The notes below the pieces were generated by a model, which was given only the letters and a program-made list of their open reading frames with translations, had not been told where the DNA came from and did no database searches. From positions 1 through 56,672 of the forward strand of contig JAMCXQ010000005.1 of NCBI GenBank assembly GCA_023474835.1: a DNA stretch of 56,672 bases, in the 5' to 3' direction. Positions 2,356 through 22,502 of the stretch are shown here, piece after piece (position 1 is the first letter of the stretch; each line of letters opens with the position of its first letter). This DNA comes from Patescibacteria group bacterium. Its GTDB lineage: Bacteria; Patescibacteriota; Minisyncoccia; Minisyncoccales; CG1-02-41-26. A program made the position numbers and the translations under genes.

Positions 2356-3093
2356 ATGCATAAAAAGCTTGCAAAGTATTTTTTATTGTTGGCAGCTGTT
2401 CTTTTAGCGGTTTTTAATTGGGGTTATATTTCATGGCTTTTCAATTACCAGTTTTTGGGCGATAACCTGTCTTATTTGGCGGGCAAACTGGTGCGCCGTT
2501 TTGATTTATCGGTGAGTTGGGACCAATTAATGGCGCAGGCGAGTTCAAGCGGCCTGTCAATTATTCAGGCCAGCCCTCAAGCCGGCATCCAAACTGTCTC
2601 AGGAACAGCCCCGCAACCGCAGCAGCCGGCGCAGCTCGCCAGAGACTTTGCCAAACAAAATTATCAGGCAGGAAACGATTTCATTTCCATTCCGAAAATC
2701 GGAGCCAGGTCGCCGATTCTGATTACCTCGCAAAACAGCAACTCGGTTTTCCTGAATCTTTTGAAAAAAGGCGTTTTGCTCTATCCCTTGTCGGTTTTGC
2801 CGGGCAAAAGGGGAGTAACGGTTATTTTGGGGCATTCCGCGCCGCCTAAATGGCCCGGGCAGGTTGACAGAATTTTCAACCGGCTCAAGGATTTGGAAGC
2901 TGGCGATTCTGTTTTGGTTCATTTTAACGGTAAAGATTATAATTACGAGGTCAAAAGGACGTATTTCGTGGACAGGGGCGGCGAGCTTTCCGCGTTGACA
3001 TTTGATAAAAACGTGCTATTATTGGTGAGTTGTTGGCCTCCGGGCAAAAATATAAAAAGAATCGTAGTGGAGGCGGAAATAAATAACAATTAA
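2356..3093 (+). CDS. sortase family transpeptidase
   Basis: N-terminal membrane anchor, then His (VILGHSAPP), Cys (LLLVSCWPPG, TLxTC-like) and Arg (KRIVVEAE) in sortase order. Confidence 0.7.
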   Translation: MHKKLAKYFLLLAAVLLAVFNWGYISWLFNYQFLGDNLSYLAGKLVRRFDLSVSWDQLMAQASSSGLSIIQASPQAGIQTVSGTAPQPQQPAQLARDFAKQNYQAGNDFISIPKIGARSPILITSQNSNSVFLNLLKKGVLLYPLSVLPGKRGVTVILGHSAPPKWPGQVDRIFNRLKDLEAGDSVLVHFNGKDYNYEVKRTYFVDRGGELSALTFDKNVLLLVSCWPPGKNIKRIVVEAEINNN

Positions 3094-7597: not shown

Positions 7598-9322
7598 ATG
7601 AAGGCTAAGATTTACCTCGTTTTTGTTTTTTTTGTTGTTTTGAGCGGCTGGATTGTTTTTAACCTTTATTGCCTGCAGATTCAAAAGGGTGATTATTACA
7701 AGGCCTTGGCATTGGGGCAGCAAATTTCCTTTGGCTCGGATTCAGCGGGCCGGGGAAATATTTTTTTTAGCGATGGAAAAACGGTTTTGGCATCCACGCG
7801 GGGAAAAATCATCGCCTATGTTTTCCCGAACAAAATAACCGGCGATTTTGCTTCTTCAGTTGATACCATTGCTGACATTTTGGGCGAAGGCAAAGCGGAA
7901 TTTTCGGACCTTTTGAAAAAAGGCGACGTTATAAAGCGTGAAATATCCGTAGAGCAGCAGCAGGAAATTCAAAAACAAAAAATTGATTTTGTCCAGTCTC
8001 AAGAAACCACCGTTCGTCTATACCCGCAGGGCGCGCTTGGCGCGAACGTTCTTGGCTTTGTCAATGAAGAAGGGCAGGGCCAGTACGGGGTGGAAGCATT
8101 TTACGATAAAACCCTCAAACCGGAATCAACAACCATTTTAAGCCCCAAGGGGCCTTTCGGCAAACTGGTTTCTTTTTTGGAGTTTGAGGGTAAAAGCCAA
8201 AAGAGTTCCAGTGGAGCTTCTTTATGGCTGTCGCTGGATAAAAATCTCCAATACGCGGCGGAAAAACTGCTTGCAAAAGGCAAAACCGACTTTGACTTTG
8301 ATTCGGCCCAAATTATAGTGGAAGAACCTTCAAGTGGCAGGATTTTGGTTTTGGCTGTCTGGCCCGGATTCAACGCCAACGAATACGGCCAAACCAAAGA
8401 CCTGTCTGTTTTTTTGAATCCGGCTGTGCAGAGCATTTTCGAGCCCGGTTCTGTTTTCAAGCCCTTTACCATGGCTGCCGGGCTTGAAGAAAAACTGGTT
8501 ACTCCCGAAACAGAATACGTTGACACGGGCTCGGTGTCGCTGGGCGGGCCTTTGATTTTGAATTTTGAGCAAAGAACGTTCGGCGAGCAGACAATGGCCG
8601 ATGTTTTGGAAAAATCAATAAATACCGGCGCTGTTTTCGTTGAACAGAAATTGGGAGGCAGCTTGTTTTTGAAGTACCTTGACAGCTTCGGATTTTTCAG
8701 CAAAACCGGCATTGATTTGTCGGGCGAAGTCGCCTCCACCAACAGCACCTTAAAGCATGGCTATCCGCGGGATTTCGCTTCGGCCGCTTTCGGCCAGGGT
8801 ATTGAAATAACGCCGATACAAATGGTTCAGGCGTTTGGCGCTTTGGCAAACAAAGGCAAAATGATGAAGCCGTTTATCGTTGACAAAATCGTTCAGGCCA
8901 ACGGCAAAGAAACAATTACGCAGCCCGTAATGGAACGGCAGGTGATTAGCGGGGACACTGCCGCAGCCCTGGCCTATATGCTTAGCAGGGTTGTTTGCAA
9001 TGGTTCGGGTATAAGAACAAAAATAACCGGTTATGCCATTGCCGGAAAAACAGGCACTGCCCAGGTGGCCGGAACTTCCGGCGGCTATCAGCAGGGCAAA
9101 ACCACGCAAAGTTTTATCGGTTTTTTTCCGGCGGAAAGTCCGCGGGCCTTGATTTTGGTGAAACTGGACAATCCCAAAGGCGTTTCCCAGGCAAGCAGAT
9201 GCGCCGTGCCCATGGCAAAGGAAATGATAAAATACATTTTGGATTTATGGCAAATTCCGCCCTCGGGTTACGAGGTTTTGCCCTGGCCTGGCCAGCTTAC
9301 CCAGCCGGTTGCGAACCATTGA
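7598..9322 (+). CDS. ftsI: penicillin-binding protein 2/FtsI-type transpeptidase
   Basis: N-terminal anchor, SxxK (GSVFKPF), SxN-like region and KTGTA motif, in the dcw position. Confidence 0.88.
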   Translation: MKAKIYLVFVFFVVLSGWIVFNLYCLQIQKGDYYKALALGQQISFGSDSAGRGNIFFSDGKTVLASTRGKIIAYVFPNKITGDFASSVDTIADILGEGKAEFSDLLKKGDVIKREISVEQQQEIQKQKIDFVQSQETTVRLYPQGALGANVLGFVNEEGQGQYGVEAFYDKTLKPESTTILSPKGPFGKLVSFLEFEGKSQKSSSGASLWLSLDKNLQYAAEKLLAKGKTDFDFDSAQIIVEEPSSGRILVLAVWPGFNANEYGQTKDLSVFLNPAVQSIFEPGSVFKPFTMAAGLEEKLVTPETEYVDTGSVSLGGPLILNFEQRTFGEQTMADVLEKSINTGAVFVEQKLGGSLFLKYLDSFGFFSKTGIDLSGEVASTNSTLKHGYPRDFASAAFGQGIEITPIQMVQAFGALANKGKMMKPFIVDKIVQANGKETITQPVMERQVISGDTAAALAYMLSRVVCNGSGIRTKITGYAIAGKTGTAQVAGTSGGYQQGKTTQSFIGFFPAESPRALILVKLDNPKGVSQASRCAVPMAKEMIKYILDLWQIPPSGYEVLPWPGQLTQPVANH

Positions 9323-9471
9323 CAGCAAAGAGTTTTTTGCTAAACTGAAGTATCGTATGAAAAGCCAAACTAATCTCCGAAACTTCTTTTTCTTTTTTAC
9401 ATTTACCAGCCTGAAGAAAGGGGTTAGTTTGAGCTTTCTAAAACACTAAATAACAATTTTTTAGAAATTTC

Positions 9472-9503
9472 ACACCAGCTTCTTTCGGGGCTGGTGTTTT
9501 TTT
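9472..9503 (+). terminator. rho-independent terminator ACACCAGC..GCTGGTGT plus T7
   Basis: 8-bp stem followed by TTTTTTT, about 150 nt after the ftsI stop. Confidence 0.65.
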
Positions 9504-9536
9504 ACAAAAAAATCCCACAAAGGAGGTGATTGTATT

Positions 9537-9737
9537 ATGGTGGGAAAAAAAATTATTGTTTTGCCAAGCGGGGATTTTCCCCGTTTGGCCCGCAAGGTTT
9601 CTCTCCTTGCCGGATTGGCCGGTGAGGAGAGGCCTGATTGCCGCGGGGCCGGCAGTCAGGTTATAATCGTTTTCCTCGGGGCAATACCCGAGGGATTCAA
9701 AGAACTTATTGCCCAATTCCTTGGGATTGGGCAATAA
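9537..9737 (+). CDS. hypothetical 66-aa protein (may instead be structured RNA)
   Basis: Strong SD AAAGGAGGTGA lies 10 nt before the ATG, and the stop is followed within 5 nt by a strong terminator. However, the region is unusually GC- and hairpin-rich and I recognise no family. Confidence 0.35.
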   Translation: MVGKKIIVLPSGDFPRLARKVSLLAGLAGEERPDCRGAGSQVIIVFLGAIPEGFKELIAQFLGIGQ

Positions 9738-9741
9738 GCAG

Positions 9742-9800
9742 GAAACGTCCCGCCGCAAATGAACAAAACAGACAAGGCGGGACGTTTCTCATTTTTTTCT
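9742..9800 (+). terminator. rho-independent terminator GAAACGTCCCGCC..GGCGGGACGTTTC plus T-run
   Basis: 13-bp perfect stem, 22-nt loop and ATTTTTTT tail. Confidence 0.7.
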
Positions 9801-9826
9801 CCGCAGCACGGGCTGTGGAAAATCCG

Positions 9827-10013
9827 TTGACATTTAAAAACATTTTGCTATTATAAAATATCTTATGACAAACAGCCGACAAACCAGCCGATATTTTTTC
9901 TGCCAGATTACCCGGACATCTCAATGGAAGGAGGTTGGTTTGAGTTTAGGAAAATAAAAAAAATCGCGAATTCAGCCCAGCCCCTTTCCAGGGGCTGGGC
10001 TTTTTGTTTTTTT
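9827..10013 (+). ncRNA. candidate ~150-nt small transcript (consensus promoter to strong terminator)
   Basis: TTGACA (9827-9832), a 16-nt spacer and TATTAT (9849-9854). Terminator is GCCCAGCCCC/GGGGCTGGGC (9975-10000) plus a T-run. Only a 30-codon ORF without an SD lies inside. Confidence 0.3.
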
Positions 10014-10216
10014 ACAACCCGGTTTGGTCCAGTTGCGGTTCTTTGTTTGGCAGTTTTATTTGGCAGGTTGTCAAACAAAGGGCCGCGGTTGCGGCCAAAT
10101 CCTGTTTTCATCTCAAAAAGAAAGGAGGTGATGGAAATGGGACATAAGAATGATGCGGGGTTTTAACCCCGCGGCATTCCCACCCCCGGGGGATGTCGCA
10201 AAAAAAGGGGAAATAT

Positions 10217-10256
10217 GCAGGAACGAAAAACAGACAAATGTTCCTGCGTATTTTTT
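10217..10256 (+). terminator. terminator-like hairpin GCAGGAAC..GTTCCTGC plus T6
   Basis: 8-bp stem, 15-nt loop and a T-run at 10251-10256. It follows an SD-led 9-codon mini-ORF (10137-10166). Confidence 0.5.
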
Positions 10257-10463
10257 ATATACAGGGGGTTTATTACAAGGGCATAGTTTGGTAAAATGAA
10301 TTTAGCGATTAAACACTGTTGCCGCGGACCGTCAAGGGGCGGCCGCGGAGACGGCGGAGAGGTTAAGAGGATGGTCAGAGAGCTTCCAACCAAACCGCCG
10401 TTTTATATTGCTCTATTTTCTTTTTCAATTATATTGCTATTTGGGCGCAGTTTGATAAAATAG

Positions 10464-10684
10464 AGAATGGCCTTGTCATCTAATGGGTCAAAGCCAACTG
10501 CTTGGCTTTGACGGGAATCTTAGAAAACTCTCCGAGTTTTCGTTAAGAAATTCCCCGGCACATTATGTTTAAGCCAACTGCTTGGCTTTGACGGCCGATT
10601 TAGGAAATCGTCCCCGATTTCCGTTAAAAATCGGCCAGGCATTCCTTAATTTATTACAATATCAGGTAGTGTTACGGTAAGAAT
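10464..10684 (+). repeat. tRNA-linked structured repeat: 23-nt copy of the tRNA-Glu 5' end followed by two hairpin-pair units
   Basis: 10464-10486 is identical to 10680-10702. HP1 GTCAAAGCCAA-CTGC-TTGGCTTTGAC is at 10487-10512, with a partial copy at 10571-10592. Two-tier hairpins HP2 are at 10513-10556 and 10593-10636, followed by AGGCATTCCTTAA. Confidence 0.75.
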
Positions 10685-10757
10685 GGCCTTGTCATCTAAT
10701 GGTTCAGGATACATGGTTCTCAACCATGTCATACGGGTTCGAATCCCGTCGAGGCCG
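10685..10757 (+). tRNA. tRNA-Glu (anticodon CTC)
   Basis: Acceptor GGCCTTG/CGAGGCC, anticodon arm CATGG-TTCTCAA-CCATG, T arm ACGGG-TTCGAAT-CCCGT. No encoded CCA. Confidence 0.85.
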
Positions 10758-10759
10758 CT

Positions 10760-11830
10760 ATGTCATTCGCTTTGCAAATTTTCATTGTTTTCGCGCTTTT
10801 TGCGGTTTTAGCCGTAATTATTTTGGGCTACGTGAAAAAACTGCTGGCCAAAATAAACAAACCGGAGGATGCCGGAGTTTTTAACCTGTTCAAGCAGGAT
10901 TTGGAGGTTATTAAAAACGAAATCAAACAAACAAGGGAAAAAAACATAGAAACAATGCAAAACCAGCTCCAGGAAAGCCGGAAAATATCCCAGGAAAGCA
11001 GCCGCATTATGTTCAACGTCACCGAACGCCTGACAAAACTTGATGAAACCAACAAGCGGGTTGAAGGTTTTGCCGCCCAGATGCAGTCATTGGAGAATAT
11101 CCTGAAGAATCCAAAACAGCGGGGCATTTTGGGCGAGTATTCCTTGGAGCTTTTGCTGAAAAACGCTTTCACGCCCAGCCAGTACCAGATGCAATACGGG
11201 TTTTCCGACGGACAAATCGTTGACGCGGTTTTGTTTGTCGGCGACAAAATAATTCCCATTGATTCCAAGTTTTCTCTGGAAAATTACAATAAAATCGTCG
11301 TGGAAAAAGACGCAGCCAAAAAAGAACAGCTGGAAAAGGCGTTTAAGCAGGATTTGAAAAACCGGATTGACGAAACCGCCAAGTACATAAGGCCGGGTGA
11401 GAACACATTTGATTTCGCCTTGATGTTTATTCCGGCCGAAGGCATTTATTACGATTTGATGGTCAACGAGGTTGGCTCGGTGAAGGTCAATACAAGGGAT
11501 TTGCTGGAATACGCCGTGTGGGAAAAAAACGTGCATATTGTTTCTCCCAATTCTTTTTACGCTTATTTGCAAACCATTTTGCAGGGGTTGAGGGCATTCA
11601 AAATTGAAGATTCCGCCAAGGAAATAAAGAAAAACGTGGAAGTTTTAAGCAAACATATAGGGGCTTTTGAAAGCTATATGCAAAAACTGGGAGGCAATTT
11701 GGGCACAACGGTCAACTGCTATAACACTGCTTACAAAGAGCTGGGTAAAATAGACAAAGACGTGGTAAAAATCACGGAAGGGGAGCGCCAGATTGAGCCG
11801 CTGCAAATTGACAAACCCGGTGTTGACTAA
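10760..11830 (+). CDS. rmuC: DNA recombination protein RmuC
   Basis: N-terminal TM helix, long coiled coil, then FDFALMFIPAEGIYYD and SPNSFYAYLQTI typical of RmuC. The ATG is 2 nt after the tRNA. Confidence 0.85.
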   Translation: MSFALQIFIVFALFAVLAVIILGYVKKLLAKINKPEDAGVFNLFKQDLEVIKNEIKQTREKNIETMQNQLQESRKISQESSRIMFNVTERLTKLDETNKRVEGFAAQMQSLENILKNPKQRGILGEYSLELLLKNAFTPSQYQMQYGFSDGQIVDAVLFVGDKIIPIDSKFSLENYNKIVVEKDAAKKEQLEKAFKQDLKNRIDETAKYIRPGENTFDFALMFIPAEGIYYDLMVNEVGSVKVNTRDLLEYAVWEKNVHIVSPNSFYAYLQTILQGLRAFKIEDSAKEIKKNVEVLSKHIGAFESYMQKLGGNLGTTVNCYNTAYKELGKIDKDVVKITEGERQIEPLQIDKPGVD

Positions 11831-12882: not shown

Positions 12883-15729
12883 CTAGTACCCCGCTTTATC
12901 CAGATTGCGAAAAGTGGCTCTTGTTTCGTCAAAGAACAGCTCTGCTTTGCCAATCGGCCCGTTTCTGTGCTTGGCAATTAAAATGTCCGCTACATTGGGT
13001 TTTTCCGAACTTTGTTTATAGCGGTCTTCTCTGTAAATAAACATCACCACGTCCGCATCCTGCTCGATTGAGCCCGATTCACGAAGGTCGGCCAATCTTG
13101 GTATTTGCGGCACTCTTTGTTCAACCGCCCGCGATAATTGCGACAAAACCAAAACCGGAATGCAAAGTTCCTTTGCCAGCGATTTCAACGCCCGCGAGTT
13201 TTCGCTCACCTGCTGAACCATGCCGTAGTTGGGATTTTGGCTGCGCGACTCCATTAACTGCAAGTAGTCAATAATCAAAAGCCCCAAGCCTTTGTCAGCC
13301 GCTAATCGCCGGGCCATTGCCCGCATTTGCAAAATGTTTGAGCTGGATATGTCGTCAATGTAAAGAGGGGATTCGGAAAGTTCGGCCATCGCTCTTTGTA
13401 TTCTTTCAAAATCATTGCCCATGCCCTGGTCCGATAATCGTCCGGTTCGCAAACGCCACAAATCAACGTCGGCCTGGCTGGCTATGAGGCGGTCAATAAT
13501 CTGGTCTTTTGACATTTCCAGGCTAAAAACGCCCACCGGTATTTTGTATTTGACAGCCACGTTGCGGGCGATATCAAGTGCCAGTGAAGAGTTATGAATG
13601 ATGAAGTCATTGGCAATAAAGTTATGATTTTCAGATACGGTCAGGTCATAAACCTGTTTTTCTCCGATTGGGGCAATAGCCGCTATTTTATCCCAATAAA
13701 TATCGCTTTGAGCGATGTCTATTAGCTCCGTAGAATTTAAAACATAAGCCAGCTTTAAGACAGTTTCTCTGCGAGGAGAACGCCGAAAGGCGTGAATGTT
13801 ATACGAGTCGGGCAAGTGGAGTTCTTTATAAACAGACCGCCAGCTCTTTTGGCCTTTTATTTCAGAGATTTTTTCCCAGATCTTAATCGGAATGGTGTCT
13901 TGCGCCCAGCCCTGTTTGGTTTTAGTTAAGTATTTTTCGGCTTTAACAATCTTCGCTTCCTCGCGATACATACCTATTTCTCGGATAAATTTTAAAAGGC
14001 TGGGGGCGTTCATAACTTCAAGTTCGTAGGCCGTAATCTTTTTTCCGTTGATTTTTGTTCTTTTCTCTCTGGTTTTGCTCAAAACTCCAAATCTCAAAAG
14101 TAAATGTTGCACCTGTTTAATGAGTCTGTATGATCCGGAGCTATAAGATAAACGATAGTATTTTTGTTTTTTGCTTTGCCAGAAACTTCCGTCGCAGGAA
14201 AATAATCGGTTTAAAAACAAGGCCAGCGATTTTTTATTTAATTCAAACACAGCTGAAGGAATGAATTTATCAATGGCGAGTTTGCCCATTAAACCAAACG
14301 ATTGCAGCCACGCATTAATCGAATTTTTGGGTGCCAGTTTTTCATATTGTTGCAAAAGATTCTGTCGCGCAGCATTATTTATTTGAAAACTATTTATAAT
14401 TGTCAGGAAATTTTCTTTTAACGGCAAATTATGTCCGTTAAGGAATGCTGAAATACCGGCAAGGCAAATTTTCGTCTGATTTGATAATGATTTTTGGGTA
14501 ATGCCTTTTTCTTGTAAAATCAGCTTTATCTTTTGTCCCAATTCTTTTATGCCCTGGCTATCTCTTTCTTTTGTTGAAGAAACCACATAAGTAAGGCATT
14601 TATTTTGGCCTCTTTTTTTGTCAGTTCTGACTTTAACATTGGGGAATTTGGCAATTGCCGACAGAAAATCTTTTTGGATTTTTATATTGCCATTAGTGAA
14701 AGCAGGGCAGCTTTCAGTTAATCCGCCCTCGGCAATAAAATAAGCCAGTGTCTTTATTTCATAATCCGGCCAGATTTTTTCCCCAAAAACAGGGATAACT
14801 CTTGGCACTCCGACTTTTTCTCCTACTCTGATTTCTGACAGTGGCTTCCATCCGTCTATTGTCAAAAATGGATGGGTAATGGTTGTTTCCACCTCTCTTC
14901 CTGATGCAGTTTTAACTTTGTAGACCGGTTGAATGCCATTATCTATGAAAGCGCTGGCTTGAGAGGGTGCTATTTTAAAATCTTTTCCTAAACTTAGGAT
15001 ATTTTGTTTTTTTTGTTTTACCACCTCTTCAATAGAACAGACACTTCCCGGGTTTGACATAACGATTTCTGTATCTTTACTAATACATTTTCCCATACTG
15101 GGCCTGGCAGCTAAAATTATCAAATCGGATTTTTGCAAGCCGGCCAAAGTGTTGTCCAGTTCCCGAAAGCCGGTAGGCAGGCCCCTCATTCCGCCTTTTT
15201 GCTTGTGCAGTTCTTCAATCCTGCGCCAGGTTTCTTCCAGGGTGTCTTTGACGTGCACGAATTTTTGGGTTAAGGAGCGCTGGGCAATGCCGAAAATCCG
15301 CTTTTCCGCTTCGTCAAGCAAACTGTCCACATCCTCGGCTTCTTTGTAAGCCAAATGGTTGATGTCTTGGGAAGCTGAAATCAAATCCCTTAAAATTCTT
15401 TTTTCCTGCACGATTTTGGCGTAGTTCAAAATGTGCGAGGCAGTGGGCACGGCGTTGACCAGTTCGGCGAGATAAGAGCCGCCGCCGATTTCCTGCAGCT
15501 GGTTTTTTTCTTTGAGTTCGCTTGTCAAACTCAAAAGGTCAATGGGCTCCCGTTTTTCAAAGAGGCCCTGCATCGCCCCGTAAATTTTCTGGTGGTGGTC
15601 TTTGTAAAAATCGCGAAAGGTCAAAAAATCAGCCACTTTCCAAATGGCGTCCGGGTCGATCATCAAGCACCCCAGCAACGATTTTTCCGCCTCAACGTTC
15701 TGGGGCGGCAGTTTTTCAGTCTCGGGCAT
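12883..15729 (-). CDS. dnaB: replicative DNA helicase DnaB, interrupted by an intein
   Basis: PPQNVEAEKSLLGCLM N-terminal domain. Walker A is split (LAARPSMGK|C...HN|S). C-terminal motifs are IIDYLQLM, LSQLSRAVEQR and AKHRNGP. Confidence 0.93.
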   Translation of the reverse strand: MPETEKLPPQNVEAEKSLLGCLMIDPDAIWKVADFLTFRDFYKDHHQKIYGAMQGLFEKREPIDLLSLTSELKEKNQLQEIGGGSYLAELVNAVPTASHILNYAKIVQEKRILRDLISASQDINHLAYKEAEDVDSLLDEAEKRIFGIAQRSLTQKFVHVKDTLEETWRRIEELHKQKGGMRGLPTGFRELDNTLAGLQKSDLIILAARPSMGKCISKDTEIVMSNPGSVCSIEEVVKQKKQNILSLGKDFKIAPSQASAFIDNGIQPVYKVKTASGREVETTITHPFLTIDGWKPLSEIRVGEKVGVPRVIPVFGEKIWPDYEIKTLAYFIAEGGLTESCPAFTNGNIKIQKDFLSAIAKFPNVKVRTDKKRGQNKCLTYVVSSTKERDSQGIKELGQKIKLILQEKGITQKSLSNQTKICLAGISAFLNGHNLPLKENFLTIINSFQINNAARQNLLQQYEKLAPKNSINAWLQSFGLMGKLAIDKFIPSAVFELNKKSLALFLNRLFSCDGSFWQSKKQKYYRLSYSSGSYRLIKQVQHLLLRFGVLSKTREKRTKINGKKITAYELEVMNAPSLLKFIREIGMYREEAKIVKAEKYLTKTKQGWAQDTIPIKIWEKISEIKGQKSWRSVYKELHLPDSYNIHAFRRSPRRETVLKLAYVLNSTELIDIAQSDIYWDKIAAIAPIGEKQVYDLTVSENHNFIANDFIIHNSSLALDIARNVAVKYKIPVGVFSLEMSKDQIIDRLIASQADVDLWRLRTGRLSDQGMGNDFERIQRAMAELSESPLYIDDISSSNILQMRAMARRLAADKGLGLLIIDYLQLMESRSQNPNYGMVQQVSENSRALKSLAKELCIPVLVLSQLSRAVEQRVPQIPRLADLRESGSIEQDADVVMFIYREDRYKQSSEKPNVADILIAKHRNGPIGKAELFFDETRATFRNLDKAGY
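13591..15087 (-). mobile_element. 499-aa intein with LAGLIDADG homing endonuclease, inserted in the DnaB P-loop
   Basis: It begins CISKDTEIV (residue 215) and has a TxxH block (TITHPF). LAGLIDADG-type blocks are LAYFIAEGGL and FLNRLFSCDGSF. It ends FIIHN followed by the +1 Ser (residue 714). Confidence 0.88.
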
Positions 15730-21042: not shown

Positions 21043-21163
21043 TTGCCGGGTCGTCTAATGGGTCAAAGCCAACTACTTGGCTTTGACGGGCGATTTAGGA
21101 AATCGCCCCCGATTTCCATTAAAAATCGCCCAGGTCTTCCTTAAAAAGTTAGGCAAATTTATT
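21043..21163 (+). repeat. tRNA-linked structured repeat: 19-nt copy of the tRNA-Gln 5' end followed by a hairpin pair
   Basis: 21043-21061 is identical to 21163-21181. HP1 GTCAAAGCCAA-CTAC-TTGGCTTTGAC is at 21062-21087 and HP2 at 21088-21131, followed by AGGTCTTCCTTAA. Same family as 10464-10684. Confidence 0.75.
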
Positions 21164-21235
21164 TGCCGGGTCGTCTAATGGTAGGACGTCTCCCTTTGGA
21201 GGAGAATATTCTAGGTTCGAATCCTAGCCCGGCAG
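21164..21235 (+). tRNA. tRNA-Gln (anticodon TTG)
   Basis: Acceptor TGCCGGG/CCCGGCA (U1-A72, as in bacterial tRNA-Gln), anticodon arm TCTCC-CTTTGGA-GGAGA, T arm CTAGG-TTCGAAT-CCTAG. Confidence 0.85.
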
Positions 21236-21280
21236 CTGATAGAAAATCTTGTTGCGAAGCAACTTAGATTTTCATCATCC

Positions 21281-21406
21281 CGAACTGAAATTGTTTTAAA
21301 ATATTCAGAACAATTCGAAACCTTAAAACAAGCCAGACACCGTGAGGCTGAAATCAAAAGCTGGCGCCGCGAAAAGAAATTAGCGTTAATGAGTCATGGC
21401 AAATAG
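21281..21406 (+). pseudogene. C-terminal remnant of a GIY-YIG (UPF0213-like) nuclease gene
   Basis: Translates as RTEIVLKYSEQFETLKQARHREAEIKSWRREKKLALMSHGK*, which resembles only the last ~40 aa of small GIY-YIG proteins. There is no start codon or N-terminal GIY-YIG part. Its stop overlaps the MTase start. Confidence 0.45.
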
Positions 21407-22502
21407 TAATCTTACTAACGCGAAACAGGCAAAGAATGATGAGTTTTACACGCAATATGGCGATATTCAAAAAGAGATTGAGGCGTATTTGGAATTTAAC
21501 CCAAATGTATTTCGGGGCAGGGTTGTGTATTGCAACTGCGACGATCCGTTTGAAAGCAATTTTTTTCGCTATTTTACGCTTAATTTCAACAAGCTTGGCT
21601 TAAAACAGCTTATTACCACAAGCTACAAGCCCTCGCCCGTAGCCAACACGCAACTGAAATTGTTTGGCGATGATAAAACCCTTACAAAATCAAAGGGCCG
21701 CCCCAAGATAACCGCCAATAAATTTATTATCAATGAAGTAGCTGATATGGACAGCGATGGCGATTTTGATTTAAAGGACATTGCCAAGCAGTTAAAGGCG
21801 AATAAGCACAATGAATGGACGCCGCTTGAGAAAGACGGCGATTTTAGAAGTTCCGAATGCGTAAAATTATTGAAGCAATCAGACATCGTGGTAACAAATC
21901 CGCCGTTTAGTTTGTTTCGTGAATACGTGAAACAACTTATTGAGTATAATAAAAAGTTTGTGATTATCGGCAACAAAAATTGCGTGACATACAAGGAAAT
22001 TTTCCCATTGATTAAAGACAACAAAATGTGGTCTGGCAAAACAGAATGGTCTGGCGGGTTATGGTTCGTAACCATGGATGATGGCGATGTAGATAAAGTA
22101 GTCAATGGCGTTAATATGAAGAATGTGTCTTCTGTTTGGTTTACCAACATAGACCACGGCAGGCGGCATCAGCCATTGCCGCTTATGACAATGGAAGAAA
22201 ATTTGAAATACAGCAAACACAAAGAAATTCAAGGCAAATCGTCGTATGACAAATATGACAACTACGACGCCATAGAAGTGCCCTTTACTGACGCTATCCC
22301 AAGCGATTATAGCGGCGTAATGGGTGTGCCCATCAGTTTTTTGGATAAATATAGCCCCGAACAATTTGAGATTGTTGGGATGGCAGAGGATAATGGCAAA
22401 GGTTTCTCTGGCGGAATTTGGGACGGCAAAAATCCTCACTGTGTCATAAACGGAGAAAATAAGTTCAAGCGAATTTTTATTAAGCATAAGAAAGTTAAGT
22501 AA
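21396..22502 (+). CDS. N6-adenine DNA methyltransferase, EcoRI-methylase-like family
   Basis: N-terminal KNDEFYTQY, catalytic IVVTNPPFSLF (NPPF), and no adjacent restriction endonuclease recognised. Confidence 0.75.
   Translation: MANSNLTNAKQAKNDEFYTQYGDIQKEIEAYLEFNPNVFRGRVVYCNCDDPFESNFFRYFTLNFNKLGLKQLITTSYKPSPVANTQLKLFGDDKTLTKSKGRPKITANKFIINEVADMDSDGDFDLKDIAKQLKANKHNEWTPLEKDGDFRSSECVKLLKQSDIVVTNPPFSLFREYVKQLIEYNKKFVIIGNKNCVTYKEIFPLIKDNKMWSGKTEWSGGLWFVTMDDGDVDKVVNGVNMKNVSSVWFTNIDHGRRHQPLPLMTMEENLKYSKHKEIQGKSSYDKYDNYDAIEVPFTDAIPSDYSGVMGVPISFLDKYSPEQFEIVGMAEDNGKGFSGGIWDGKNPHCVINGENKFKRIFIKHKKVK

Follow-up and report, generated by a model that had tools for sequence, protein, structure and literature searches.

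A covarying two-hairpin RNA module beside duplicated tRNA 5' segments in Patescibacteria

Why should an intact tRNA gene be preceded by an exact copy of its own 5' end and a series of hairpins? The question is raised by the tRNA-Glu locus of a 56.7-kb contig, which is analyzed here at its full length (the window) and belongs to an NCBI metagenome-assembled genome (MAG) named 'Patescibacteria group bacterium' (candidate phyla radiation). An earlier note on this DNA suggested either a miniature element that inserts in the tRNA D-loop region and regenerates the gene, or a tRNA leader RNA with a decoy 5' half. In our analysis, the tRNA-Glu region is one instance, a tandem pair, of an apparently undescribed, Patescibacteria-specific structured RNA module. 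The reading that we favor, with slightly less than even confidence, is a non-autonomous insertion that is structured as RNA, comes with a duplication of its target, and is transcribed together with the tRNA as the leader of the pre-tRNA.

As the earlier note had reported, the window holds two exact occurrences of AGAATGGCCTTGTCATCTAATGG, one at 10464-10486 and the other at 10680-10702. No further match is found in the window even at three mismatches, and none appears in 100 shuffles. Both ARAGORN and Rfam (RF00005), which were used for all tRNA calls, put the start of tRNA-Glu(CTC) at 10685 and not at 10680, where the note had placed it. Therefore, the 23-nucleotide (nt) repeat consists of five leader bases and nt 1-18 of the tRNA. 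It covers the acceptor 5' strand, the D-stem 5' strand, and the D-loop as far as G18G19, where it stops. The first repeat copy, hereafter the head, is followed by two tandem copies of a two-hairpin module of ~77 nt, and the hairpin series read in the earlier note (hairpin 1, HP1; two-tier hairpin 2, HP2; second HP1; second HP2; tail) is as described. In the first copy, HP1 has a perfect 11-bp stem and the 4-nt loop CUGC. An 11-nt linker separates the first HP2 from the second HP1. The second copy lies at a period of 80 nt, and the 5' strand of its HP1 is degenerate and weakened. Directly after the second HP2 comes AGGCATTCCTTAA (10637-10649). The mini-hairpin AGG-CATT-CCT followed by TAA forms a module tail that is common to the spacer of the Glu locus, the copy at the tRNA-Gln locus of the window, and the related locus L058. 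Because the AGGNNTTCCTTAA tail is also present in the L058 copy, where ARAGORN finds no same-strand downstream tRNA, it more likely belongs to the module than to a remnant of an interrupted tRNA. No significant remnant of an interrupted tRNA is detected in the window, be it behind the module or behind the tRNA (z < 1).

A promoter-like site with an upstream TG (extended -10) precedes the head. The earlier note had called it a good promoter. The site is present, and both hexamers and their spacing are conserved in the orthologous locus L076, where the surroundings are not conserved, but the pattern itself is not above chance in the window (one site found vs 1.3 expected). By comparison with the promoter of L077, TACAAT at 10655-10660 may be a second -10 element. 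The 1.1 kb upstream of the element (9322-10460) are poor in open reading frames (ORFs). They hold two short ORFs with ribosome-binding sites, one at 9537-9737 and another starting near 10135, and several GC-rich terminator-like hairpins; all Rfam matches there are sub-threshold. RNase P RNA was considered for 9300-10470 of the window and for the region upstream of rmuC in L071, and was rejected for want of Rfam support.

A third HP1 motif, at 21062-21087, lies a short way upstream of tRNA-Gln(TTG), the only other tRNA of the window. The head of this locus (21043-21061) is identical over 19 nt to 21163-21181 and also ends at the D-loop GG. Its HP2 shares ~90% identity with that of the second Glu unit, a compensatory outer-stem change being among the differences, and is followed by AGGTCTTCCTTAA and then by a 26-nt spacer. 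The earlier note spoke of three units; the Glu locus has two, and the third copy of the window is the one before tRNA-Gln (21060-21136). A covariance model of the module (R1), built from 31 copies and run on the full window with filters off, recovers only these three copies, with scores of 84-92 bits, and the match that ranks next has 12.6 bits. Thus, both tRNAs of the window (2/2) carry a head and a module, and nothing else in the 56.7 kb does. An EcoRI-type adenine methyltransferase gene (21396-22502, +) lies directly downstream of tRNA-Gln.

Table 1 Features of the two tRNA loci of the window
Locus	Feature	Position	Strand	Evidence or remark
tRNA-Glu	Promoter-like site TTGCTA-16 nt-TAAAAT, TG upstream (extended -10)	10434..10461	+	Would start transcription 2-5 nt before the head
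tRNA-Glu	Head: exact copy of 5 leader nt and tRNA-Glu nt 1-18	10464..10486	+	Repeat search
tRNA-Glu	Module copy 1: GG, HP1 10487-10512, two-tier HP2 10513-10555, CGG	10485..10560	+	R1 83.6 bits, E ~1e-17; folds
tRNA-Glu	Module copy 2: HP1 10567-10592, HP2 10593-10636	10565..10641	+	R1 84.4 bits
tRNA-Glu	Spacer: AGG-CATT-CCT mini-hairpin and TAA; TACAAT hexamer at 10655-10660	10637..10679	+	
tRNA-Glu	Second 23-nt repeat copy: leader and start of the intact tRNA	10680..10702	+	Repeat search
tRNA-Glu	Intact tRNA-Glu(CTC)	10685..10758	+	ARAGORN; Rfam RF00005 60.5 bits
tRNA-Gln	Head: exact copy of 1 leader nt and tRNA-Gln nt 1-18	21043..21061	+	Repeat comparison
tRNA-Gln	Module copy 3: HP1 21062-21087, HP2 21088-21131, AGG	21060..21136	+	R1 92.1 bits
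tRNA-Gln	Spacer; its GGCAAAT is complementary to the head and the tRNA 5' strand	21137..21162	+	
tRNA-Gln	Intact tRNA-Gln(TTG)	21164..21236	+	ARAGORN, Rfam

Is the module peculiar to this contig? Copies were collected with the exact HP1 pattern in GTDB species genomes and JGI metagenome contigs. In GTDB the pattern occurs at 13 places, 10 of them in Patescibacteria MAGs and the remaining three chance matches in coding DNA of other phyla. The JGI contigs contribute 57 loci, of which ~4 are chance. After identical metagenome contigs were collapsed, 49 distinct copies remained. The earlier note had tied its proposal to the existence of further copies, and about 50 distinct ones are found in Patescibacteria. 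The MAGs with the module are labeled Paceibacterota, Gribaldobacteria, Sungiibacteriota, Giovannonibacteria, and 'Saccharibacteria', labels that may be loose, notably 'Saccharibacteria' on third-party annotation (TPA) assemblies; the DnaX of one such assembly, the source of L005 and L081, is 68% identical to that of the window. The proteins nearest to the RmuC and DnaX of the window come from Pacebacteria, Parcubacteria, and Gribaldobacteria MAGs. Three copies are seen in the 56.7-kb contig and one to three per fetched locus. In L055, three tandem copies (209-488) repeat with a 101-nt period, and two contigs of one MAG (L001 and L002) end inside the module.

No known family accounts for it. 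At the gathering thresholds of Rfam 15, only tRNA is found in the window and 30 related loci, as the earlier note had anticipated in recognizing no known RNA family. When matches with E up to 10 are admitted for 10400-10800, the module is overlapped only by a chance match to RybB of 11.8 bits. The full-text literature searched contains no description of such an element. A phage or plasmid origin was rejected, as no module match is found in viral contigs (IMG/VR, two patterns), phage records (INPHARED), or plasmid records (PLSDB).

The module consists of GG, HP1, and HP2, to which a third hairpin is added in other lineages. Family-wide, HP1 has a stem of 11-12 bp and a 4-nt loop, usually CUGC or UUGA. 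HP2 keeps a constant architecture. Its outer stem has 9 bp (GGGNNNUUU / AAANNNCCC) and is followed by a single bulged A and by an inner hairpin of variable sequence with a YCCY loop, whose stem is perfect over 8 bp in some copies and contains tandem G.A pairs in others; the 3' side carries a 5-nt GUUAA asymmetric loop. In a plain MAFFT alignment of 31 copies (A1), 92.8% of pair cells are paired vs 81.1% in shuffles, and 103 cells are changed on both sides vs 36 in shuffles, with slid controls at 31-53%. In a model-aligned set of 46 distinct copies (A4), an alignment that leans towards structure, 94.2% of pair cells are paired vs 78.6% when shuffled, and both-side, compensatory changes occur in 23 of 27 pairs; controls with partners slid by 1-3 columns give 29-51%. 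Compensatory substitutions stand above shuffled and slid controls, as is generally expected of a structured RNA, and the covariation that the earlier note wished to see supports the hairpins in both alignments.

HP1 could have been a fixed double-stranded DNA operator. However, the covariance model recovers diverged copies that show covariation within HP1 as well, at 9 of its 11 pairs (GUCAAAGGCAA/UUGCCUUUGAC, GUCGAAGUCAA/UUGACUUCGAC, and GUUAAAACCAU/AUGGUUUUAAC are examples), indicating that HP1 is a helix and not such an operator. There are 22 G.U pairs vs 7 A.C, and 48 cells of the inner stem are G.A or A.G. The G.U over A.C asymmetry indicates that the fold is selected on the tRNA-sense strand, as RNA. 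Covariation strongly supports both hairpins on this strand.

The module is strongly associated with tRNA genes. A same-strand tRNA lies 85-230 nt downstream of 24 of the 49 distinct copies, in line with the association that the earlier note had expected, and the associated tRNAs have at least 12 identities (Glu, Gln, Gly, Met, Trp, Asn, Arg, Ser, Val, Ile, Ala, and Glu(UUC)). The module is mostly in the sense orientation relative to the tRNA. A regular-expression test of tRNA-like heads proved too permissive, with a background of 28%, and was dropped for a comparison between cognate and non-cognate tRNA starts. The ~18 nt before HP1 are closer to the start of the cognate tRNA than to those of others (mean identity 0.75 vs 0.56; Mann-Whitney p = 6.6e-8, n = 22), and the head is derived from the cognate tRNA. 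Exact heads are found in five loci, namely at both tRNAs of the window (Glu and Gln), at L032 Ser and L063 Ala, and, bar one deletion, at L066 Gln; in L032 and L063 the similarity extends 11 to >30 nt further into the leader. In many loci the head has diverged from the downstream tRNA. Within one genome, the module may be confined to part of the tRNAs (1/6 in L068).

Beyond the head, the interrupted copy can continue. In L014, L016, L032, L044, L062, and L076 (TAGGACG), it resumes after the module from nt 20 to ~37, leaving a remnant that comprises the D-stem 3' strand and the anticodon stem and ends near the anticodon loop. In L053 (1566-1790), the module interrupts a degenerate outer tRNA-Val(TAC) after G19, and the insertion consists of HP1 and an HP2 whose inner stem encloses, as its terminal loop, a complete tRNA-Val(TAC) (1635-1708). 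When the insertion is deleted in silico, ARAGORN calls the outer tRNA, whose acceptor stem then contains two G.G mismatches. In L011, an outer tRNA-Gly has a module in its D-loop, and an intact tRNA-Gly sits at the tip of a 22-bp helix in the anticodon loop of the outer tRNA-Gly. The regeneration of the gene proposed in the earlier note is therefore not always by fusion, as the interrupted copy may continue or may enclose the intact tRNA.

In another arrangement, a complex of ~200 nt lies 3' of intact tRNAs (L019:171-520, L028:5166-5470, L045:3950-4265, and the second module of L032 at 1015-1257). It begins with a 12-nt antisense copy of the T-loop and the T-stem 3' strand, followed by GCCGGAGCGAU, a hairpin, and the module, and it ends with a third hairpin, a GGAA-tetraloop hairpin, and a direct repeat (18-23 nt) of the tRNA 3' end that starts at nt 57. 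It folds as a five-way junction closed by the antisense:sense helix (z = -5.3, -7.9). The recurring arrangements are thus a module after G19 of a truncated copy, a complex bounded after C56, and an intact tRNA nested in an interrupted copy. G19 and C56 pair at the tip of the tRNA elbow, and the two fixed boundaries coincide with these partners.

A related object is found in L008 (3820-3950), where a tRNA-like RNA of ~130 nt lies between tRNA-Val and a partial 3' copy of tRNA-Val. It has the acceptor stem GGGCA/UGCCC and the T arm GGAGGUUCAAUCCCUCC, and the module replaces the D and anticodon arms. ARAGORN reports it as a doubtful permuted transfer-messenger RNA (tmRNA), 'tmRNA*', with an implausible tag.

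Not every copy is at a tRNA gene of the same strand. The module lies between rpsG and fusA in L005 and ahead of a pilM-like gene in the L010 group. In L023 (679-921) and L047 (1415-1491), it is antisense in an rRNA operon, in the spacer from 16S to tRNA-Ile, and is flanked by direct repeats of 15-17 nt. (L023 also has a group I intron at 1102-1536.) The earlier note had proposed to test whether copies always sit 5' of a tRNA with a matching segment; this holds in part, as heads are often non-identical and copies also occur 3' of tRNAs and at non-tRNA sites. Its D-loop miniature element gains from the tRNA identities, the direct repeats at non-tRNA sites, the tandem arrays, and the presence and absence of the module among relatives.

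That polymorphism is seen at both tRNA loci, in the comparison of orthologous loci that the earlier note had recommended. Upstream of rmuC, L076 (RmuC 84% identical to that of the window) has the same promoter, a head of the window type, and one module, with a tRNA-Glu that differs in type from that of the window. L074/L075 (83%) and L077 (77%) have tRNA-Glu with neither module nor head, and L071-L073 (83%) lack tRNA-Glu, module, and head. At tRNA-Glu, the module is missing in 2 of 4 related loci. The tRNA-Glu(CTC) genes near rmuC fall into two sequence types, GGCCUUG... with discriminator G and GCCGCUA... with discriminator A (compared at L076:1760-1832, window:10685-10758, L074:2410-2481, and L077:2423-2497). 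In L076 the head is of the first type (GGCCUUG) and the tRNA is of the second (GCCGCUA), suggesting that one tRNA gene has taken the place of another here.

Downstream of dnaX, L066 has the head, module, spacer, and tRNA-Gln, in synteny with the window at 66-70% nucleotide identity, and L078-L081 (DnaX 68-71% identical) have tRNA-Gln without the module. Overall, the module is missing at tRNA-Gln in 4 of 6 related loci. L078 looks like an empty site, because its upstream flank is homologous to the flank of L066 upstream of the head. The downstream side of tRNA-Gln is variable too, with other genes in place of the EcoRI-type methyltransferase gene in L078-L081. In L081, which lacks the module, a gene of the bAvd / 23S_rRNA_IVP family, an accessory protein family of diversity-generating retroelements, lies between dnaX and tRNA-Gln (2645-3022). 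As to mobility genes in general, Pfam analysis of 149 ORFs within 3 kb of 42 loci shows no enrichment of transposase, integrase, or reverse transcriptase, and there are no integrase or recombinase genes beside the window loci.

How might such an arrangement arise? In the reading that we prefer, the module would land at a tRNA elbow position, here directly after the D-loop G18G19, and the insertion would bring with it a duplication of the interrupted segment, so that the left copy would be the head (leader and nt 1-18) and the right copy would run on into the complete, functional tRNA. The layout of head, module, remnant where present, spacer, leader, and tRNA is topologically a partial tandem duplication of the tRNA 5' segment with the module in its first copy, an outcome equivalent to a long target-site duplication or to a Campbell-type single crossover. 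The unit would be non-autonomous because it carries no mobility gene, and it may spread by recombination at the conserved D-loop and T-loop boxes or through an RNA intermediate. A more specific version, in which the duplication ends at the transcription start as in an RNA-mediated copy, fits the Glu locus but is contradicted by L066 and L078, and was rejected. As the module lies between the tRNA promoter and the tRNA, it would be transcribed as a structured 5' leader of ~120-220 nt, which RNase P would remove. Such an insertion would be tolerated because an intact tRNA is retained. This reading fits best, since the module recurs at many tRNAs, is present or absent among relatives, and has no linked gene.

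Several observations weigh against it. We know of no enzyme or mechanism that makes duplications of 17-50 nt with one end fixed in a tRNA loop. No clean filled and empty pair with identical flanks that would delimit the inserted unit is found among the compared loci. Copy number per genome looks low, as judged from contigs, and the sample is biased to one HP1 variant because it was gathered with the exact HP1 pattern. Compensatory changes separate orthologues. The window differs in this way from L076 at three HP1 pairs and from L066 at one pair of the HP2 outer stem, as L054 does from L068 at one pair of the inner stem, indicating that the structure has long been maintained at individual loci. 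Long-term structural selection of this kind is expected of a host-useful RNA and not of a dead insertion. The head is also conserved beyond neutral expectation; that of L066 differs by one deletion, where the spacer is only ~65% identical. In addition, the window head shares the derived bases G7 and A10 with its tRNA, which implies homogenization by conversion or re-duplication.

These observations lead to the first alternative, a serious rival that we consider less probable. Here the module would be an RNA domain that works in cis for the host, in the leaders and trailers of pre-tRNAs and in the leaders of some mRNAs. It could serve as a processing, stability, or antitermination element, as a platform that binds a conserved protein, or as a chaperone or decoy directed at the tRNA elbow; the head and an anti-head would close a discrete small RNA, freed when RNase P cuts the downstream tRNA. 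Strong strand-specific covariation, conserved loop sequences, and the changes between orthologous loci fit such a role, as do a promoter directly upstream that is kept in the window and L076, the mostly sense orientation, and a place inside operons such as rpsG-fusA in L005. The insertion points themselves, G19 and C56, are partners of the elbow pair, an RNA-level logic. Minimum-free-energy folds likewise have closing helices, either head:anti-head or, in the 3' arrangement, anti-T:tail. Leader-only folds are often closed by pairing of the head with a complementary stretch that follows the module, and in folds of full precursors the tRNA 3' acceptor strand pairs with the head and not with its own 5' strand, as the decoy idea of the earlier note would have it. 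However, the head and the tRNA 5' strand are identical, so this pairing is expected from the sequences and shows only that competition is possible, not function. A host role also sits poorly with the finding that the same tRNA does without the module in close relatives and that only part of the tRNAs of a genome carry it. Copies antisense in an rRNA operon spacer, heads diverged from their tRNA, and tandem arrays and contig breaks of the kind left by repeated insertions point the same way, and no co-occurring protein partner is found. The two readings are compatible, not exclusive of each other.

Comparable in standing, and equally tentative, is a reading in which the module is not a scar but the working part of a new class of Patescibacteria RNAs scaffolded on tRNA, grafted exactly at the elbow (after G19 or C56) of a sacrificial tRNA copy that adjoins or encloses the real tRNA. 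The tRNA-derived head or tail and its antisense partner may close the RNA and may target it to its own tRNA or tRNA gene. Such targeting could serve tRNA-specific processing or quality control, or an RNA-guided copying directed at tRNA genes, and the latter, if so, would explain both the spread and the long duplications. Guide RNAs of mobile systems (the omega RNA of IscB/TnpB and the bridge RNA of IS110) are similar in placing a variable match of ~20 nt to nearby DNA on a structured scaffold, and the 3' arrangement carries sense and antisense copies of the target. They differ in that the 'target' here belongs to the very site that is occupied, at a distance of 100-200 nt, which amounts to self-targeting; no IscB, IsrB, TnpB, or IS110 gene is nearby, and Rfam gives no HEARO match.

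The likeness to tRNA-gene genomic islands and integrative elements suggests another origin, to which we assign a low probability. The repeats would be attL/attR-type scars of a tRNA-targeting, site-specific integrase with a 5' (D-loop) sublocation, the ~100-200 nt between them would be deletion leftovers of larger elements, and the hairpins would be an element end. Integrative elements of tRNA genes leave a direct repeat of part of the tRNA and use anticodon-loop, T-loop, and 3'-end sublocations. Here too, an intact tRNA adjoins a partial copy of itself with a sharp identity block of 17-23 nt, presence varies among relatives, and the boundary of the 3' arrangement lies in the T-loop. Att-like duplications are found in the window (23 nt and 19 nt, with unrelated flanks) and in L019, L028, and L045, whose 3' repeats of 18-23 nt from the T-loop mirror the known sublocation. 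However, the duplicated part at the window loci is 5' with a D-loop boundary, and to our knowledge a D-loop sublocation has not been described. The unit is only 100-200 nt long, its content is a covarying RNA, and some copies enclose nested complete tRNAs; the interrupted copy may also continue past the module. No tyrosine or serine recombinase is found in the element, among the 149 ORFs, or beside the window loci, and no integrase lies within 3 kb in the 42 loci. Moreover, the same small module is kept everywhere, an outcome that large elements decaying independently would not give. Covariation of the RNA type, with its G.U bias, is unexpected for double-stranded att arm sites, and the phage, plasmid, and viral collections gave no matches.

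Least likely is that the module is an intervening sequence of a still-used tRNA, a D-loop insertion that is removed or that yields a split, two-piece product after excision of an inner tRNA, with the window copies as decayed versions: the near-complete outer tRNAs of L053 and L011, the L008 RNA with acceptor stem, T arm, and module, and an insertion exactly at the elbow, which would keep the L-shape, speak for it, but the outer acceptor stems are degenerate (the two G.G mismatches of L053), the anticodon and T arms are missing from most outer copies, no outer 3' part is left in the window, no splicing motif or enzyme is evident, and all cases examined have an intact copy of that tRNA next to, or within, the interrupted one. 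The disrupted tRNAs of archaea and some algae (non-canonical introns, split and permuted tRNAs) are similar in having foreign sequence at the D- or T-loop and tRNA pieces apart in the DNA; the present case differs in being bacterial, with an intact copy always alongside and interrupted copies that decay. The junctions, GG|GUCA... and ...CCC|NGG, have no bulge-helix-bulge motif of the archaeal intron type.

Two further comparisons concern the module itself. Like repetitive extragenic palindromes (REP) and bacterial interspersed mosaic elements (BIME), Correia and RUP elements, Rickettsia palindromic elements, and miniature inverted-repeat transposable elements (MITEs), it is a short, non-coding, geneless set of hairpins that occurs in both orientations, in tandem, in operons, and, to judge from contigs, in several copies per genome. 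It differs in its apparently low copy number, its strong preference for tRNA loops, and a two-domain structure with conserved internal loops that is maintained by compensatory changes; its ends are not mutual inverted repeats, and the flanking repeats are not of a short, fixed length but vary from 15 to >50 nt. The acceptor and T-arm frame with extra helices in L008 recalls tmRNA, two-piece tmRNA, YrlA/Y RNA, and mascRNA, and the module junction UUUGACGGG resembles the tmRNA motif UUCGACGGG, which is where ARAGORN places its 'tmRNA*'. In contrast to tmRNA, there is no tag reading frame and no G3:U70 pair, and there are apparently several copies per genome; Rfam gives no match, and the window copies have neither T arm nor ORF. 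A tmRNA identity was rejected on the lack of an Rfam match, the implausible tag, and the multiple copies.

Elsewhere in the window, the DnaB helicase gene (12883-15729, -) is interrupted by an intein with LAGLIDADG homing-endonuclease and helix-turn-helix domains.

What is new here is, first, a conserved RNA fold that is supported by covariation and has no known family and, second, bacterial tRNA genes interrupted at two elbow nucleotides with an intact copy beside or nested inside. The covariance model, the ~50 copies, and the filled and empty orthologous sites provide a resource for studying both. There is a practical side as well, since tRNA annotation and the assembly of Patescibacteria MAGs will be led astray by the partial tRNA copies and the long structured leaders. 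Patescibacteria have tiny genomes in which tRNA genes are mostly single-copy, and repeated, tolerated landing in tRNA genes is unusual for this reason. Should the RNA prove to have a function that depends on its tRNA-derived arms, it would represent a new kind of tRNA-directed RNA; as a purely selfish unit, it would instead be a miniature element of a new type, with an insertion chemistry that makes long duplications anchored in tRNA loops.

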